A stretch of 64,000 nucleotides of DNA from Alloascoidea hylecoeti (Eukaryota): contig BCKZ01000001.1 in the NCBI GenBank assembly GCA_001600815.1, positions 1,707,389 through 1,771,388 on the forward strand, written 5' to 3'. A model generated the notes under the pieces. It was given only the letters and a program-made list of their open reading frames with translations. It was not told where the DNA came from and searched no databases. Every line of letters begins with the position of its first letter. Position 1 is the stretch's first letter. Below are positions 1 to 40,001 of the stretch, piece after piece. A program made the position numbers and the translations under genes.

Positions 1-3000
1 TGGTACGATCTTCTATATTAAACGATTAAAATCCATTTTTAATATCAAATGTTCTACCAGAATAACCAATGACTTTATAGTTCGTAAATTAAATATTTTT
101 AATTTAATTCTAAAAGGTAAATGGTCTTTACCGGTATATGATTCATACTAAGAGTCAATTTCTGAAAAAAAAATCACTATAGTACTTACTACTTTCAAGA
201 TTTTGAAACATTGATACACATACCTGATCACTATCAATTATCTGTTTCCATGATTTAGAAACTCCTCTACGTGTACAAATGAGAAAAAGTGGTCGATGGA
301 AAATCCGAGACGACTATTTCACATATTTCATAGGGAAGATAAGAATCAAAACGATTGTAGTCTCAAGATTATTCTCTAAACAATTGTTAAAATGGTTGTC
401 ATATATGTACTTGTGGTGGTCAATAATGTTTCCGCTTTTTCCAATCGACAGTTTGAGGAGCGTTATTTAAAGCATATAAGTAAAAACCCCAAAATGAAAG
501 GGTTTACGACCTTTACTCATTATCTCTGCGAAATCTAGTGAACTTAATAAATGAATCCAGATAGATGAAAAAGTAGACAATTAAGTTTCTAATATATTAT
601 ATGGGTGCGTGTCACAGAAAAAAAAATAAACTTTTAGGAAAATCCATAACATATGAACACTCGTGCAAAATGTTACCACAGCAGCAAAATCACTTCCTTT
701 CTCACATATAACAAGATGATTATCTAGATGCGTGCATGCAGAACCGTGTGTTATGCATATTTCCATGTGACGTGTATGTTACTTAATTTATTTTTATAAC
801 TATGGTACTGTTGAACTTTTACCTAGTGGATCGTAAACTCCACTAAAACATAGTAAGAGACTATCTCTATCTCTAGTAGTGGCCCCTGAGACAGTCTCTT
901 TCCTTTTATTATGATACTACAGCATAAATTATCAAAGTGGTTCATCATAACCTGAGTATAATTATCATCCTGTATATATCTGATAAACTGGTATCAAATT
1001 TTATTTTCTGTGATTGAATATGGTGTACGTGTGACGAGATTATACAGAGAGCTCTGGGTTGCTGGTTCGCCCAAAGAGGAAGATGATAGAAGCGTTCTGG
1101 AACGTTTCGAAATGAAAGGATTTTAGAAACGTCACCATACAACAGTATGTTTGTGGTGTATGCTGTTCAGATTAATATATATTACTCGGGGATAGCCAGA
1201 CGTTAATAAGTTATAGGGTTCTCCAACTACTTTTAACAGGCACCGACATTCGATATCGATTGTAAATAAGAATCGTAAAATTCTCTAAAGCCAGCGCTTC
1301 TATACGATCAGATACAAATTATCAGATACAAATCCGAAATTTACCGGAATTAGCAACATCAACAGCCTCAAATATTAATTTCTTAGGCTATTTGTATTCA
1401 TGTTGTTGTAGATGAAGATGCCGGTAACATCTCCGAAAGAGAAATAACCTATGATAGATGTCCTCAAAGACTTTTTGAGAAAAGAACCCGTAGAAGTATG
1501 AAGAAAAATATAAAAAAGATACTATTGAAATAGTAGTAGCTAGGGATCGAAAAGGCAATCAGTAATTACAACATCTGCTGCTGTATCTAAACTATATACT
1601 GGTCTTAACTATGTTTGTGAAAAGGTGAATTTAAGAATAATATTAATATTAAAAATTTAACAGTGATTAAATTGGGATATAATCCGGTAATCATCATATT
1701 GATACAAAAATCAAACATGTCCTAGTAATTTTTTTCTCATTCAAACATTTCAAATCTATAAATAAAGTAGGTACTAAAAATCGTCAGATATCCATCTGTT
1801 TTTGTTATAGTTCGTCTAAATTCACATATTTTTTGTTATGGTTTGTTTAGAATCACGTAATGTGTTATACGTCAACATGCATAATTATAGATCTCTACTT
1901 CTGCTGTGTTATTTAGAAGTTTTGCTAAGATAGACAAACACAGTGATAATATATCACAAAATGAGTACCATGATGGAGAAATCCGATTAATAATTATAAT
2001 CAAAAATGAATATAAGCATCTAGCTGAAATTAGTAAGCCAACACTCTTAATTTTATAACTTAGAAATATTGACATTTATAGGTAAGGAGGTTAGATAGTG
2101 CAAAAAGAAAAGAATGTTTGTCTAATAAAATAAGATTAACGTAACCTTAACGGTTAAATATATTATAAGTTGCAACCTAAATCCCAGTTAAACTGCCGTA
2201 CTATTAAATATAGTAGATTTCCTATGTTTATGATTGTTGAATACAAAATCGTGTATCGATATTGATATCTAATATCTAGATTTAGGATATTATGAAATTC
2301 AAGATCTATTAATAAACATTAACGGTTCATGCTCCGTGCCGTTGAAACGGTTACATACGATTAAAGTCCTACAATTGTATGAATATGTTGTTGATTAAAC
2401 ATATATTATCAAAATATATAGTCCTAATTAGGGTCAATTACAGCTTTCACTGGTGGTATAATATGCATAGATATACATTATTTAAAATTATTCATAATAT
2501 TAATAATCTGCATGCACTCCACGATCAATCATGAGATTATGCAAGCGAAGATTGTTTAACCATATTTTATGCAAAGGAAAATTTCTTTTTAAGCTTAATT
2601 AATTTATGCTTTTGTTTGTCTCTTTTTTGGAAAAAAGATTATTCTCCATATATATTATGTTCATTCTAGAACGACTTCTTCGAAAATTTCAAATCATAAA
2701 TATAATTAAGGGGAAATTTCATTATACTTAACAATTATACTAGGTACGGTTTGTTATTGTCAACTATTGGAACACAATTTTAGGTTGTAATATATATGTG
2801 AGAGTCATTATAATTCTAACTTGCGACACATACAGAGCTACCCGTTATGCTCTCTTAAAGAACATATCATGGATTCCAAAAATTTACTGTTGTAGATTAG
2901 ATGGAACATAATGATCATGCAAAAAGTTTAAACTTAATTATAAGTGTGTATCCTTGAAAAAAATGATCATGGTAATTAACATTGAAATTATGTCTAGATA

Positions 3001-4117: not shown

Positions 4118-6952
4118 AATGATGAAGTATGGAAATAAGAGATTGCTTTAGAAACTGGCGTCTTTTGGGAGGTATAAATATTCATGTAAATAGCCGGTAT
4201 CCAGAGTACGGCCCACGTGTAACTCTGGAACTATCTGTTCGTAAGCTGCAGTTCTGCACGTCGAACCCTATTTACAGAGCAACAGTTCCCTGCAGCCGGC
4301 TCGAAGCAGACTTTCTATTGCACGAGACGCAAAGCACGCAGATCTCGCAGAAATCTCGCAGAAATCCTTCTTCTTTGTTGAATTCACCATACAGATTCCA
4401 CAGAAGGAGGTTTCAAGATATGCAATTAATCCAGTCGCTGGCATGTCCAGATCCAGATCTAGAATATTAATGGCTGGTCTTTAAAGTTAACGTGAAACTC
4501 ATCTTTAATCTTACTTCTCTATTTTATCTGTATAGAAGTTATATTTTATCTTCATTTTCGATTTCAATTGAAATTTCTCCAGCTAGTTGTAATGTAACTA
4601 TCTGTAATATATAATCAGCTAGTTCATTAATATAATACTCTGCTCGTTATAGCATAACCGATTATAAATATCCATTAATAATGTTGTAAATGAAGTCGAT
4701 ATCAATATATCTGTTATTAATGTAATTAATCATGTATGATCTCAATATACTTATTAATATTAAGATGCACTCATTAGAACTATTGGTTACTTTACAATAA
4801 GTTTTTATGGCGCTATAACTATAGCACAAATTATTTAACATCCGTATATATACCATTTTGTAGCAATGAGTATATTGTTTACTCAATTTTCCTTGGACTT
4901 CTATACTAAACTTTAATTTCTGATGTTATCAACCTAAAGTTAAGCAAAATTGTGTTATTTGTGAAAGGTTTTCAACATATAGAATATATGATCCATGCAA
5001 TTTGAAACTAATTCATTGCATTTATATTTATGTATGGTAAATTCTTACAATTACTATGTTCAAATTAAGACTATCTGCAACGTGACCTTCTTGAATTAGC
5101 ACTATTTATTCTTAGTTTAGTTTACTAATTCTATTTTTGTTGAGGAATCAGGATATAGATTTTATAATATTAAACCTATTCACAATTGTGCACGTGAAAT
5201 CAGTGATGGGATTCTGCTTTAAGTTTAAACCATTGAGACACCACTAACTCTAATTGCTTTATATGGTGTGTATACGATTATAGGTGTATGTTACTGTTTT
5301 GAGAGCAATGATATACAAAGTTTAAATAAAGACCTCAGCCGTGCGATTAATATTTATGATCGTATACATACAGAGAGCGTCCATTCTAAACATAATATTC
5401 TAGATAGATCGACATTTTTGATATCTTTAGAAGTTTATCGTTTATTATAACTAGCTATAGTATAGAGAGATCAAAAAGATATAAATGTTTTCAATTCATA
5501 CATCACTTGTACTGGCTCACTATATAATTTATAATATCTGCATACCGGTATACGTATGTATTTATGGTGATGAGAGATTTTAATTATCTTCTTATCTTAT
5601 ATATTGGGCGATTTACAAGAGAAGCTTAATCAGAACTTAACTAAAAACAAATATTATTGCTATGGAAGTATAGTACTTTAAATAAATAGTACAGAAGATG
5701 TATAACGTTAACCTAATCTTTCAATATTAATCATTCTACAATATTAATTCAAAGCTCTAGATCTACTATAGCTAGTTGACGTTATGAATCTAAATTTACA
5801 TTTGTAAAGAGCTCGATCCTCATTGTAGTTATTTCGAATTCATTAAACGGAGATCATTAATCATAAATAGATTATCAATTTTTCCTTTAAAATAATCCGA
5901 TTGTCTATTTAGTATCAATAAGAAATATAAATTGCATATGATATAAAATTTTTCTTTCGATAATTGTAATTTCGAATTCGTTAATACTTTCTGCGGTTAT
6001 AATTTTTCCTATACTAAACTTTTATAAGTTTTAGAGATTAAGTATATATTAAATCAGGAAGCCTAATACATTTTTAAATTTAGCTATTAGCTGTATAAGT
6101 TAAAATTTTGGAGGAAAATAATCAACCTTTCAATTCTTAGATAAAAATTAGTTGGCTATAGTTTCAATTGGCAATTGCAATTGGTGCTTGATGCATTAGA
6201 GCCATTTCATATCTGTAAATGTGATATTGGGCTAACTTATCAATGGGCCTGATTTAAAGAGATAGCTTCAGCTGATATTCAATTACTAATTATATTAAAC
6301 CTTAGGCTTATAATTACCGTATAATGAAAACTACCAATATATTATTGTATTCTATTTCTAACACTGCAATTACAATTGGAATTTACAATTTGGCTAGCTA
6401 AATTCTTTAACAAAATTAATATGCTATTAATCAAATTCTAAAGATTCGAATGTTTTTCTTCTTTTGAATCGGACTATTATAATTAATTATAATTATGGAC
6501 TATGGACTAGATTAAATTACTGTTATATATTCTAGATTATAATATTATAAGTTCTGAAAGCCGGTAAAACTACCAATGAAAATGTAATAAAATTCGGATA
6601 ATATGCATAGAACTTGATACCAATTGGGTATAACTTATCGTTTTTTAGGATGATTAATCAATATTAATGCAGCGAAGCCACGAAGAATGCAAACTCGTAA
6701 TTGTCAAATGCTTGCAAATATAATAATTAACACCGCCAGATCTAGATATATTGATATTAATATTTGTCAACCTGTTTTACTAATGATTCTAGTTAAACAA
6801 TGCTTAGCTATAGAGTATAAGCCTCTAATCTCTATATTAGTTCTAATATCATAGGCTACCATAGCCAGTCAACAAAATAGAACGCTAATTATATTGTAGC
6901 TATAGGAATGCGCAAATTGTTGTAGTCTTAATGTCTCATGTAGTAATTTTAG

Positions 6953-8203: not shown

Positions 8204-8305
8204 GCTCCGTTGGCTCAGTTGGTAGAGCGTCAGTCTCATATTAATTTCCGTGTCATACGAAAACGTGTGATCTGAAGGTCGAGAGTTCGAGCCTCCCACG
8301 GAGCA
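8204..8305 (+). tRNA. tRNA-Met(CAT), elongator type, with a 29-nt intron (8241-8269)
   Basis: Acceptor stem GCTCCGT/ACGGAGC, D-arm GCTC-AGTTGGTA-GAGC, anticodon arm TCAGT-CTCATA[intron]ATCTGA, T-arm GAGAG-TTCGAGC-CTCCC. Nearly identical to the yeast elongator tRNA-Met. A T5 Pol III terminator follows at 8311-8315. Confidence 0.95.
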
Positions 8306-35767: not shown

Positions 35768-37132
35768 ATGAAGTATTTCACAGAAACAAGACATGTATTC
35801 AACACTTCCTTACCTAGAAGTTTACCAAGATCTACAAAAGGTTTTAATGCAGATTTACAAATAGTGGGCAAATTGTATGCTCCCATTGAATATAAATTTC
35901 AAGACAAAGAAGAATCATCTTCGATCTCATGTTCCCCTTCTTTTGTCTTCTGTCATGGAAATGGATTTCCAAAGGTAATATTGCTAGATTTTATTTTACT
36001 AAAAATTCTAATTCACATATGTTTTTGATGTAGGAATTATTCGAGCCCATGTTGGATGAACTCTACATCTACTTAAAACAAAAAGGAATTAAAATAAATC
36101 TAATTCTAACATTCGATGCCTTTCATCAAGGAGAATCTGGCGTTTTGAATGAATCGAAACTTGGCGACGCTTGTACGTGTTTTTCTACTTATCTTTCATA
36201 GCTACATAAAGCATATTTGATCTGTCTAACTTAAATTATAAATAGATGCTTGGTTTGATACAGCACGAGATATTGGGTTAATTCTTCATGATTTAAAAAC
36301 TAAAATAACTCCATTATTCTTTAATAAAGGTCCATTAATTGGTGTTGGACATTCAATGGGTGGTACTACACTATTAATTGCCTCTCAATTATATCCTACA
36401 CTATTTAGTTCAATAATTTGTCTTGATGCAATCATTGGACCTTTTCATCATAGTTTCGTTTCGGGTGTAGCCAAGTTGGCATCATTAAGTATGCGCCGAA
36501 AAGACTCGTGGAAAAGTAGATCAGAAGCATTAACAAGTTTTCAATCAAATCCTTTTTACAAGACTTGGGATCCTATTGCATTGGAGAAATATGTTGAATT
36601 TGGATTACGTGATCTACCTACATTTTTATATCCTAATCCAAAATTTACACCTGGTAGTGTTACACTAACTACAACTAAAAAGCAAGAAACCATTACTTTT
36701 TTAACTGCTAATGGTCAATTAAAAGGTCACGAATCAAAGCCTTATAACAATATAATGAGACTTGAGCCAAATTATGTTTTTGATACCTTAATCAAAACCC
36801 CAATCCCTGTTTTTTTAGTAGTTGTTAAAGATGGAGCGTTATCAAGAGTTTACCCCTATTTTCAAGAAAAAATTAAACAATTAAATGATAAGGATCACAT
36901 ATCACAAGTGGTTTGGATTGATAATGTAACCCATGCTCTACCTTTTGAAAATCCTAAAAAGGTTACTGAATGTATTACACCGTTTATCATTAAAAGCTGT
37001 GAAAAGTGGATGAATGATAGAGAAAAAAAGATTGAATCTGATAAAGAGGCTTTTGAGGTTGGTATTAGTGGATTTAATAAGGATTATATAGAATTTTTTG
37101 CGGACTTAGGCAAGGAGAAATCAAAGTTTTAA
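35768..37132 (+). CDS. Alpha/beta hydrolase, Lpx1-like putative peroxisomal lipase; exons 35768-35974, 36034-36172, 36246-37132 (410 aa)
   Basis: Two GT-AG introns join CHGNGFPK-ELFEP, D..HQGESG, WFDTARD and the GHSMGG nucleophile elbow in frame. The C-terminal SKF is PTS1-like. Confidence 0.85.
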
Positions 37133-37424
37133 ATATTCAAAATAGACAGAGATTAGTCAAGCAAAAGAAGATCTAGATAATAATTCTTACCATATACATA
37201 ATTCGTAGCATAACACAAAAATTATCCGCACCATTACTCCCCGTACAAACCCATTGGCACTGTAGATAAACATAGCAAAATTTAAATTCAATTCGATCGA
37301 CATTCTTGAGGATATAGGACTATATAATTCTCTTGTGTGTATGTTGAAGATAAGATATCAATAAACAGGCATAAATTAAAAAAAAAAAACAAGTTGCTCT
37401 ATTTTATCTTTTCTTAATAAGTTA

Positions 37425-37621
37425 CAGTTTTTCCATTCTGAACTCGCTGCATTGGAGAGACATTTTCGTTACTTACGTGAGGGAATTGTCAGATTATGGC
37501 GAAATAAATTAAAGCCAAATAGCGGTTACGCCGGAAACTATTTATCAGATGTGCCGAAAATCTACACACGTAGATGACGAGAATGTCTCTCCAGTATGGT
37601 AAATTTAGATGGGAAAAACTG
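37425..37621. mobile_element. Tc1/mariner-type MITE (197 bp)
   Basis: Imperfect TIRs of about 55 bp (cagtttttcc..tggagagacattttcgt..tacgtg / cacgta..acgagaatgtctctcca..ggaaaaactg), flanked by TA on both sides. Confidence 0.88.
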
Positions 37622-37638
37622 TAATTATTGTGATAGGC

Positions 37639-37713
37639 CTAGGGCTTCATTATGTTAGGGCTTTTGCAATCGTTAGCTTTCCTTTTAAAAAAAAATTTTC
37701 TTCTGAAAAAATT
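37639..37713 (+). promoter_or_regulatory. snoRNA-gene-type promoter: two Tbf1-like sites and RRPE-like motifs
   Basis: ctagggct (37639) and ttagggct (37655, reverse complement AGCCCTAA) match the aRCCCTaa Tbf1 motif of yeast snoRNA promoters. aaaattttc and tgaaaaaatt are RRPE-like. Confidence 0.6.
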
Positions 37714-37827
37714 ATTCAAATAATAAAAATTTTACCAAATTTGTAAGTTGAAACATTAACCCCATCTTTCATGATATTCCATAGTATCCTAATGAGATGG
37801 AGAAACTTGAAGGTTTATAATTAATGC

Positions 37828-37906
37828 TTATGTGATGATTCTATGTACTGCGTTATCGATCTGATTACAACTGAAGAGATAATACAAGAACCGCTACTCT
37901 GATTAA
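37828..37906 (+). ncRNA. Intronic box C/D snoRNA with two guides (snR68-like and snR50-like)
   Basis: C box GTGATGA 37832-37838, D' CTGA 37861, C'-like TGAAGA 37872, D CTGA 37899. The D' guide CTGCGTTATCG complements 25S CGATAACGCAG. The D guide AGAACCGCTAC complements 25S GTAGCGGTTCT. Confidence 0.88.
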
Positions 37907-38409
37907 AGTCTTATAAACTCGAATAATATCTTCACACATTATTCTAATAATTAAATTTTTAACTAACCGATATATTTATACATTAGTTTATACCTTCATT
38001 TAAGTTGATCTTAAGCAAATATATTTAGATGTTCTAGCTAGGCCTTTGAGGTACAAGTATTATGGGTGCAAATTGAAAATTGGAAACGTGGTCGTACTTC
38101 GGTAGTTCCTTTTTTTGTGCTATCTGCTCATGGTATTTCCCATAATGAATCCACTTCCTATTTACCAACACAAGCTCGATCAGCACAGTTTTAGGATTGG
38201 TCTCGCTCGACATCTGATTCACATAGACTTATGGAGTGGTTTCCCCTCAAGGTCAATCCCTATAATTGATCGCACATGGTTCATTACATAGGTGAAGTTC
38301 CACATGTTTCCGTAAGCGTGGCTTTCAGTGTTCTTTTTTTTTTCTTTTTTTTTTTTCGCTAACATTAAATTTAAACGAAAGCTACCATCGAGAGACACTT
38401 CTAAATGGA

Positions 38410-38544
38410 CATCTTCAAGTCCCAATGAAAGAGCTTTCAGTTCTTGTAAGTTCTTTCCACTAGCTAGTTAGAAACCGCTTGGATTGAAGTTGCGTAGCAC
38501 CATCTGACAAGAAGTGAAAGCTCTTTCATTAGGACTTGAAGATG
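38410..38544. repeat. 41-bp inverted repeat (38/41 matches) with a 53-nt spacer
   Basis: catcttcaagtcccaatgaaagagctttcagttcttgtaag (38410-38450) versus ctgacaagaagtgaaagctctttcattaggacttgaagatg (38504-38544). Confidence 0.92.
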
Positions 38545-40001
38545 AGAAATTCGATGCCAAGCTTGAGATTTACAAGCGTAATAAAGATTAAATTTGGGGA
38601 GGTTATAATAATAAGTCTTATAGTTTTACATTGCTTATAGTTTATTTCGTAATACAAATTCATTCTTTCTTCACAAATGTTAATTTTTATCACAAATCTC
38701 GTGATCTTTCAGTCCACATATATAGCTTAATAAACAGACATTCCAACAGGTTATGAGCGCATCTTCCTCTTCGCTCCAGGACATTATCTTTTTAACACAT
38801 TAACTCAGACGGCTTTCATTGGTCAATCAGATACAATCACGTGGTGATTGCTAACAATTGCAAGGTCAACTTTCCCTGGGCTTTAATACAAAGAAAGAAT
38901 GAAAGAATGAAAAAAAAAACTGAGCTCCAGATCCTTTTGCCAGATGCTTTGTATGAAGTTACTTTCTCAAGTATAACTTGTAAAAATAAAAATAATAAAT
39001 TAAATGTGAATAATTGACCTATATTCACGATTGTGGATGAATCTATGTGTATAGGTATATTTTTACCGTTAATTAACGTTAACGTTAACTGGCCCCGCAG
39101 ACCTTGCAATTAATTAATGGCATTTAACGTTCTGACAGCATGCATAAATGAGCCAACATGTATAATATCTGTCTTGTTTTGGTTAACAATATTTTTGAAA
39201 AAGGCATTTAATGAGCAAAAATGGTTACTTTATAATCTGAATGATGTAATTCAAACAAAGGCAAGGAAGTAATGCTATACTAGCTTTAATTTACCATCTA
39301 AATTTAACTCATAGAATGGTTATAGCGATCGCGATCGCTCTAAAGCTTCTAAATTCATACAATACTAATTGCAATTGGACAATTAGTATGATTCGATGAT
39401 TTATAATTATAACATATGATTAACTTCATGACATCAACCCCCATGGCCAGCAGTATTGATATTAACTATTAACCGTTAATATGTATAACCGTGACCATTT
39501 ACCAAATTTAAGTCAATTTTAACTCAAAGATTTTCTTTTAAAATAATAATGACAAATATCTAAATTAAAATACAACTCTGTATATTATATTTATACAATC
39601 ATGTAGATCAAGAAAGGAATGATCAAAAGAATTGAAAGATATCTACTAACATTATAATTCTATACAATATTAATTGATATAACATATAACTTATACTCAG
39701 TAGAAATAATATATATTTATGGTAATGGAAAAAAAAAGAAAAGGAAAAAAAAGTGTACCAACTAGTACCGAACATTCATGATAATCCTTCATATATAGTA
39801 ATAGTAATGGATATATAAATTCAAAAAGTATAGGAAATTTAGATTCCAGCATAAAAATAAACGACCTATATCCAGTGATATAAAAATGATACTGAGACAT
39901 AATGGTGAATCCATAATTTAAATATATAGTAATTATAAATGATATAAACCCGTAAGCTTGTTATGTTTTTATTGTTTTTTTGTGATAATCGTTCTACTTA
40001 T

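Follow-up and report, generated by a model that had tools for sequence, protein, structure and literature searches.

A probable intronic snoRNA host gene of Alloascoidea hylecoeti, followed by transposon remnants and a copy-specific hairpin

The 64-kb stretch of DNA analysed here (the window, positions 1707389-1771388 of contig C1) belongs to the 24.8-Mb, 136-contig, budding-yeast-type genome of Alloascoidea hylecoeti and contains what is very probably an ordinary RNA polymerase II non-coding snoRNA host gene, followed by unconstrained downstream DNA with transposon debris. An earlier note had read this region as a three-exon RNA with two introns. In the following, positions refer to the window unless another locus (L) or contig (C) is named.

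The candidate gene is located in a 2.9-kb intergenic region that separates a hydrolase-like ORF from a BCY1-like gene. The hydrolase-like ORF lies upstream and ends at 37132; its last 258 amino acids gave no Pfam match, and the earlier note alone presumed it to be LPX1-like. The downstream neighbour is the cNMP-binding BCY1-like gene on the minus strand. Over 37438-39000 and 37466-39000, respectively, contigs from two DNA data sets, one of them a possible source of the present DNA, do not differ from the window and thus provide no usable polymorphism; two further DNA runs cover 8/30 and 4/30 bins of the region. When the whole 64-kb window was searched with Rfam at the gathering level, nothing besides one tRNA gene with an intron (8204-8305) was found. 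Between 37100 and 40000, no Rfam family scored above threshold, the best match being to a generic miRNA hairpin model (E 0.042; 24.5 bits versus a cut-off of 97).

The predicted transcription unit begins with two copies of TAGGGCTT on the plus strand at 37640 and 37656 (37640-37663, 16 nt apart), which we take, according to the presumed Tbf1 consensus, to be Tbf1-type sites. They form the only same-strand TAGGGY pair within 40 nt among the 22 TAGGGY sites of the window. A/T runs on the plus strand at 37691-37713, with pattern matches at 37691-37699 and 37704, presumably constitute one or more RRPE-like elements, again by an assumed consensus; two such patterns are frequent in the AT-rich window, with 15 and 16 matches window-wide. 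The Tbf1-like and RRPE-like motifs reported in the earlier note are thus present, the first as a unique doublet and the second as a common pattern. TBF1-type elements are likewise found upstream of C/D snoRNA genes in yeasts, including C. albicans and D. hansenii (PMC4138321). Just upstream of the Tbf1-type sites lies an inverted repeat, the second of the region, with 69-nt arms (37422-37490 and 37556-37624) that are 72% complementary. Because a contig from another site in the genome matches 37418-37478 with 10 differences, the repeat (37422-37624) may be a MITE-like or fold-back relic.

A presumed short exon 1 on the plus strand starts around the RRPE-like element and ends at 37742. The predicted intron 1 (37743-37986, plus strand, 244 nt) has a GTAAGT donor, an ACTAAC branch motif (37962-67) with its branch A 20 nt from the acceptor, and a TAG acceptor. 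It is well formed, as stated in the earlier note, and hosts a box C/D snoRNA with a complete layout (37832-37902, plus strand), which was recognised by its boxes and by guide matching. This snoRNA comprises a C box (GTGATGA, 37832-38), a D' box (CTGA, 37861-64), a C'-like box (TGAAGA, 37872-77) and a D box (CTGA, 37899-902), the latter 64 nt from the branch A, and carries two guides. Between 37790 and 37940, Rfam gave 9 matches on the plus strand, all of them to C/D snoRNA families and all below the respective gathering score. The likeness to snR68 and plant snoR27 (RF01287), the best of these matches, lies in the D' guide (37848-37858, plus strand) and its box, where 17 of 18 letters agree with the snoR27 consensus of Rfam, whereas the whole-gene score stays below the cut-off (20 versus 41 bits).

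The D' guide pairs without interruption over 10 nt with the eukaryotic LSU consensus of Rfam, the fifth base from the D' box facing an A, and a decayed LSU fragment of the organism itself retains 9 of the 11 letters of the guide target. Judged by this pairing and by the likeness to snoR27, the D' guide is predicted to direct the snR68-type methylation of 25S Am2640, where the numbering that links the pairing to this site is our assumption. The D guide (37887-37897, plus strand) is probably of the snR50 type, with 25S Gm867 as the presumed target. Among the sub-threshold Rfam matches in 37790-37940 snR50 is absent, none of the LSU fragments found in the genome spans the 25S G867 region, and a literature search with the D-guide motif returned unrelated items only. 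A table of 25S sites assigns Am2640 to snR68 and Gm867 to snR50 (PMC5699541). Thus, an snR68-type and an snR50-type guide are probably joined in one snoRNA. This joining was not found in literature that names both snoRNAs; the main text of PMC5824354 contains neither 'snR68' nor '2640', and its supplements may list the combination. A metagenome pattern search for an orthologous snoRNA gave one match inside a bacterial coding region, which was rejected as a chance match. As to the rDNA, scattered fragments are present (L028 3150-5600 on C2, L029 on C5 and L030 on C10), comprising a partial 18S-ITS1-5.8S piece beside a frame that by eye resembles a decayed Tc1/mariner element, and two decayed LSU pseudo-fragments. 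A strict search of the assembly revealed no intact 25S gene.

Intronic C/D snoRNAs in non-coding host genes have been described for S. pombe and N. crassa, as have fused double guides (PMC4138321, PMC2780460, PMC3596301). The N. crassa snoRNA CD5 joins the two single guides snR72 and snR78 in one molecule (PMC2780460), an organisation that corresponds to the one proposed here. In contrast to the described fungal hosts, the present locus has a single snoRNA, transposon remnants downstream and possibly a second intron without a snoRNA. With a snoRNA in a consensus intron and exons that lack a conserved ORF, the locus has the properties of a host gene. The proposal of a non-coding snoRNA host under Tbf1- and RRPE-type elements, as made in the earlier note, is therefore supported, but the arrangement is one that had already been described.

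Exon 2, for which high foldability had been claimed, is not more stable than expected by chance. Its fold has a z-score of -1.28 with 11 of 100 shuffles equally stable (25 of 100 for the opposite strand), and six 120-nt windows starting between 38000 and 38200 gave z-scores from -0.56 to +1.25 (40 shuffles each). The unstructured 5' half of the exon (37987-38152, plus strand, 166 nt; window z near 0) has no non-self match, and no paralog was detected in a genome search. A resemblance to the 5' end of the hAT family described below is seen at 38086-38115 and is weak (47 of 1000 shuffles). This half may hold the true end of the host transcript, the position of which is presumptive.

The following 145 of the 325 nt, corresponding to 45% of exon 2 (38153-38297, plus strand), are a piece of a dispersed repeat family. 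They show 70-76% identity to loci on C27, C1 (357 kb) and C15, and profiles that were built from other copies alone match this segment with E-values of 1.5e-21 and 3.6e-23. At least 12 other loci belong to the family (C15, C27 twice, C1, C48, C7, C2, C5 twice, C6, C12 and C29). The copies are ridden with indels, and among 8 that were aligned, 7 terminate at a common A/T-rich 3' motif; other copies reach upstream into a Cys/His motif, recognised by eye, which is followed by a short hydrophobic frame end. The Cys/His motif and the shared 3' end suggest that the repeat is probably the 3' end of a LINE, of which the window would contain an internal fragment with the end of ORF2 and the start of the 3' UTR. 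Copies that are 5'-truncated and share a common 3' end are typical of LINE anatomy (PMC3956500). Fungal non-LTR elements of the Tad or L1/Zorro clades resemble the family in their common 3' end with variable 5' extent, in a Cys/His motif that precedes the frame end and in an A/T-rich terminus (PMC3956500); they differ from it in that no link to a reverse transcriptase was found for the family and in that the window contains an internal 145-nt piece only.

Several searches for the origin of the exon-2 family were performed. A Pfam search with four family fragments assigned a relevant family to none of them (0/4), and two homolog searches were blank. The family profile had no match in the 46 loci, many of them with 1.5 kb of flank, that were fetched around PF00078 matches (59 in total). 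For one fragment, the first Atlas matches (0.94-0.95) were unnamed eukaryotic clusters, and 2 of 30 clusters carried zf-RVT on 11% of their members; a second fragment gave a blank result in the Atlas. A full-length source LINE was not found in the genome searches. C38 contains a decayed Tad-like LINE (L069, ~101-104 kb) with a reverse transcriptase (RVT_1, E 4e-9), a Cys/His end and a poly(A) tail. As a source of the exon-2 family it was rejected after a profile search without a match, and hhalign of the family against the LINE end gave a non-significant E-value of 0.1. A derivation of exon 2 from the catalytic part of the same hAT gene as that found in exon 3 (see below) was also discarded, since the exon-2 family has a separate 3' end and no hAT library protein matched it. 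Many reverse transcriptase matches with in-frame TGA only are located on small contigs (C53, C63-C67, C72, C76, C80, C125 and C133), which suggests genes of mitochondrial-type group II introns or another genetic code.

Exon 3 is largely derived from a mobile element of another family. The region 38454-38709 shares 72% identity with a locus on C9, and its open frame led to further copies on C18 and C30. The C18 copy is recognised as PF05699 (Dimer_Tnp_hAT) by Pfam (E 1.7e-9), and a fragment of it retrieves 20 library proteins with E<=0.001, several of which have hAT-type motifs. The window, C9, C18 and C30 copies are collinear, and a profile of four hAT copies from outside the window matches the window once (38434-38610, E 3e-12). 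The frame in the window is too decayed to match Pfam in a direct scan. In addition to the window copy, the family includes at least 9 loci on nine contigs (C9, C18, C30, C17, C10, C91, C23, C32 and C16), six of which, beyond the first copies, were recognised by the ends of the family. By homology, 38410-38709 (plus strand) corresponds to the decayed 3' part of a hAT element, with the dimerisation motif, the rest of the coding end and 3' non-coding sequence. It accounts for 135 of the 163 nt (83%) of exon 3 up to 38544, and this comparison identifies exon 3 as largely the decayed C-terminus of a hAT transposase gene. The earlier note had named membership of the exons in a transposon as evidence against its own proposal, and this is what is found for 38410-38709 and probably for 38153-38297.

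The hAT relics and mRover1 MITEs of Lachancea (PMC4316626) resemble the family in their internal deletions, the few C-terminal coding residues that they retain and their subterminal repeats; in contrast, neither terminal repeats nor a target duplication can be recognised in the window copy. A hAT 5' profile likewise missed the window copy. The C9 copy (L002 ~1239-1908, minus strand) is a non-autonomous hAT element of ~670 bp with repeated subterminal motifs; it has a weak candidate for an 8-bp target duplication (7 of 8 letters), the left copy of which lies inside a short microsatellite. The best-preserved hAT remnant is the C18 copy (L020 ~5330-5700), which occupies the narrow space that separates a TOP2-like gene from a convergent neighbour. 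A genome search with PF05699 gave three matches, one relic and two long genes, and neither of the latter matches the region at the DNA or protein level. These two genes are intact ORFs of 1007 and 1118 amino acids (L018 2893-5913 on C11 and L019 2379-5732 on C33) with a weak hAT dimerisation domain and Asn-rich inserts, and look domesticated. We presume that they are comparable to Vid22/Env11. The full-length source transposase was not found in the genome searches.

Between the two relics lies the candidate intron 2 (38312-38381, plus strand, 70 nt) with a GTAAGC donor, a T-tract, a GCTAAC branch motif and an AAG acceptor, which occurs in 8 of the 15 unverified intron-like candidates of the window. 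An intron-like signal appeared in 53 of 2000 shuffles of 37987-38720, and the strict pattern in 14 of 1000 shuffles of the intergenic region. Since intron 2 thus exceeds most chance signals and has a branch-acceptor spacing (19) like that of intron 1, the transcript may well be spliced twice. On the other hand, a post hoc comparison with five hAT copies (0, 2, 13, 14 and 617 of 1000 shuffles) revealed a likeness of the donor region to the subterminal repeat of four of them; this likeness is moderate, 7 of 8528 window tiles reach it equally well, and a hAT 5' profile search of the window had no match at the donor. A hAT subterminal repeat would supply a GTAAG donor without selection. Intron 2 may therefore be a chance assembly of a subterminal hAT motif and a T-tract, or a real, empty host intron; a text search of PMC3596301 gave no passage on host introns that are empty. 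A nested insertion of the retroposon piece into a hAT 5' end was matched by 67 of 5096 control joins (post hoc) and was missed by the profile search. Two further ideas were rejected: a shared intron 2 in the C9 copy, the branch-like motif of which aligns with the hAT coding remnant at 38455-70, and an origin as an intron of the transposase gene, because the sequence without it matched C18 or C30 no better (749 and 595 of 1000 shuffles). The claim of two well-formed introns thus holds for the consensus signals of both, but the donor of intron 2 is possibly of hAT origin. Real or accidental, intron 2 links pieces of two unrelated repeats and gives the exons no function.

The 41-bp hairpin in exon 3 (38410-38544, plus strand), which was also described in the earlier note, is real. 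Its arms (38410-38450 and 38504-38544) form 38 of 41 pairs around a 53-nt loop, and the exon-3 fold has a z-score of -6.81, with 0 of 200 shuffles being equally stable. The conserved dimerisation motif is encoded in the left arm, for which a match to the coding strand was found in both the C18 and the C30 copy (0 of 500 shuffles each). Read on the coding strand, the right arm matches neither C18 (186 of 500 shuffles) nor C9 (297 of 500) and has a weak match to C30 (7 of 500), but its reverse complement matches C30 equally well as the left arm does. The hairpin is absent from all three paralogs examined (z 0.19, -1.86 and 0.16 versus -9.47 here), and the arms are 93% alike, compared with 65-75% for the copies of the hAT family. 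Because of these matches and the absence of the hairpin from the paralogs, the right arm can be read as a younger inverted copy that replaced coding sequence; by these comparisons, the left arm is ancestral transposase sequence and the right arm a later addition. The three mismatches (C-A, G-G and A-G) all break pairing, and none is G-U or has been compensated; in comparison with C30, each arm carries one change. These three changes are weak evidence, and not proof, that the hairpin is decaying neutrally. Template switching is a described source of hairpin-forming inversions (PMC10710096).

An alternative is a small-RNA gene, in which the host transcript would span the hairpin and the stem would be diced and loaded onto Argonaute, making the locus an endogenous anti-hAT hairpin-siRNA gene that was born in one template switch under a snoRNA promoter. 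In this reading, a housekeeping host gene would have turned into a trap for transposons, with the retroposon piece and the fold-back both contained in an exon RNA that is produced constitutively and has no other use. We consider this unlikely. The genome does encode an Argonaute (Piwi domain, E 4.5e-74, within a 983-amino acid open frame; L105, C6 146302-147270), and the hAT motif with the best conservation lies within the stem, on the strand that is presumably transcribed. In Naumovozyma castellii, palindromic loci are the main source of siRNAs, with 74% of the siRNA reads (PMC7528652); the present locus shares with them an inverted duplication, a transcript of which would fold into a stem-loop, and an Argonaute-encoding genome. 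Template-switch hairpins can, in addition, turn into small-RNA genes when a promoter is given (PMC10710096). However, with 38 pairs and three pair-breaking mismatches the stem is very short compared with the N. castellii loci (PMC7528652). Moreover, the PF05699 genome search with its three matches provided no intact autonomous hAT element as a target, and in the closest paralog ~7 of the 36 stem positions are different. Should the stem be diced after all, this budding yeast would offer a clear example of how a small-RNA gene can originate de novo by borrowing a promoter of the ribosome-biogenesis type.

Very unlikely is the reading of the earlier note, namely a structured lncRNA of three exons that has its own function and is co-expressed with ribosome-biogenesis genes. 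It is in line with the consensus signals in both introns, the strong promoter motifs and the absence of a long ORF, and the identical sequence in the contigs of a second study indicates that the assembly is right. Transposon origin as such does not exclude a later function. However, the features of a structured functional non-coding RNA are not observed here: exon 2 has no fold excess, the hairpin is specific to this copy with pair-breaking changes, the above-mentioned shares of both exons are repeat-derived, and Rfam recognised nothing above threshold between 37100 and 40000. The proposed function of the spliced RNA is therefore not supported.

It is even less probable that the host transcript codes for a 53-amino acid micropeptide from exon 2. 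After in-silico splicing, the corresponding ORF (ATG at 38130, stop at 38289-91) is both the first and the longest of the spliced RNA, and short parts of it can be aligned with the translated sequences of three paralogs. However, in these paralogs the aligned parts are spread over different frames and separated by stops, the ancestral-looking frame of the family is another one that ends at 38214-16, and the ORF straddles this family frame and its UTR. Its genome search returned only itself and no Pfam family was found, which confirms the earlier statement that the exons contain no credible ORF. Finally, a telomerase RNA or another large RNA (RNase P/MRP, U3, snR30 or a spliceosomal snRNA) that is interrupted or ended by introns has a nearly negligible probability: the TAGGG repeats resemble a telomeric motif, introns are possible in structured RNAs of fungi and a splice donor can form the end of a yeast telomerase RNA, but Rfam gave no match, the repeat families account for the exon sequence, and inspection by eye revealed none of the conserved boxes expected of such RNAs, no Sm-type site before the second donor and no template-like direct repeat in exon 2.

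For the snoRNA host gene, which we prefer, the following course can be proposed. The Tbf1-type and RRPE-type elements, as suggested by the motifs and the literature, would drive the transcript jointly with ribosome-biogenesis genes. Splicing of intron 1 would free a lariat, which, given the canonical layout, would be trimmed to a box C/D snoRNA of ~75 nt. Its D' guide, which pairs with the Rfam LSU consensus, would direct the 2'-O-methylation of 25S A2640, and its D guide probably that of the presumed target G867, while the ligated exons would be a by-product. Downstream of intron 1, the 145-nt retroposon-like piece and the hAT 3' end would have been retained because there is little constraint on this side of the intron. 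Fold-back repair is, like template switching, a described source of inversions that form hairpins. Long after the insertion, one of these two processes may have produced an inverted copy of 41 nt of the hAT remnant, and the hairpin formed in this way would since have decayed in both arms.

As it stands, the locus is of little importance and adds one more intronic snoRNA host gene to those already described. Two points are of minor interest: an snR68-type guide is probably combined with an snR50-type guide in one snoRNA, and the origin of the hairpin can be read directly from its paralogs. The locus also illustrates how remnants of transposons, together with a fold-back scar, can give the false impression of a structured, spliced lncRNA.
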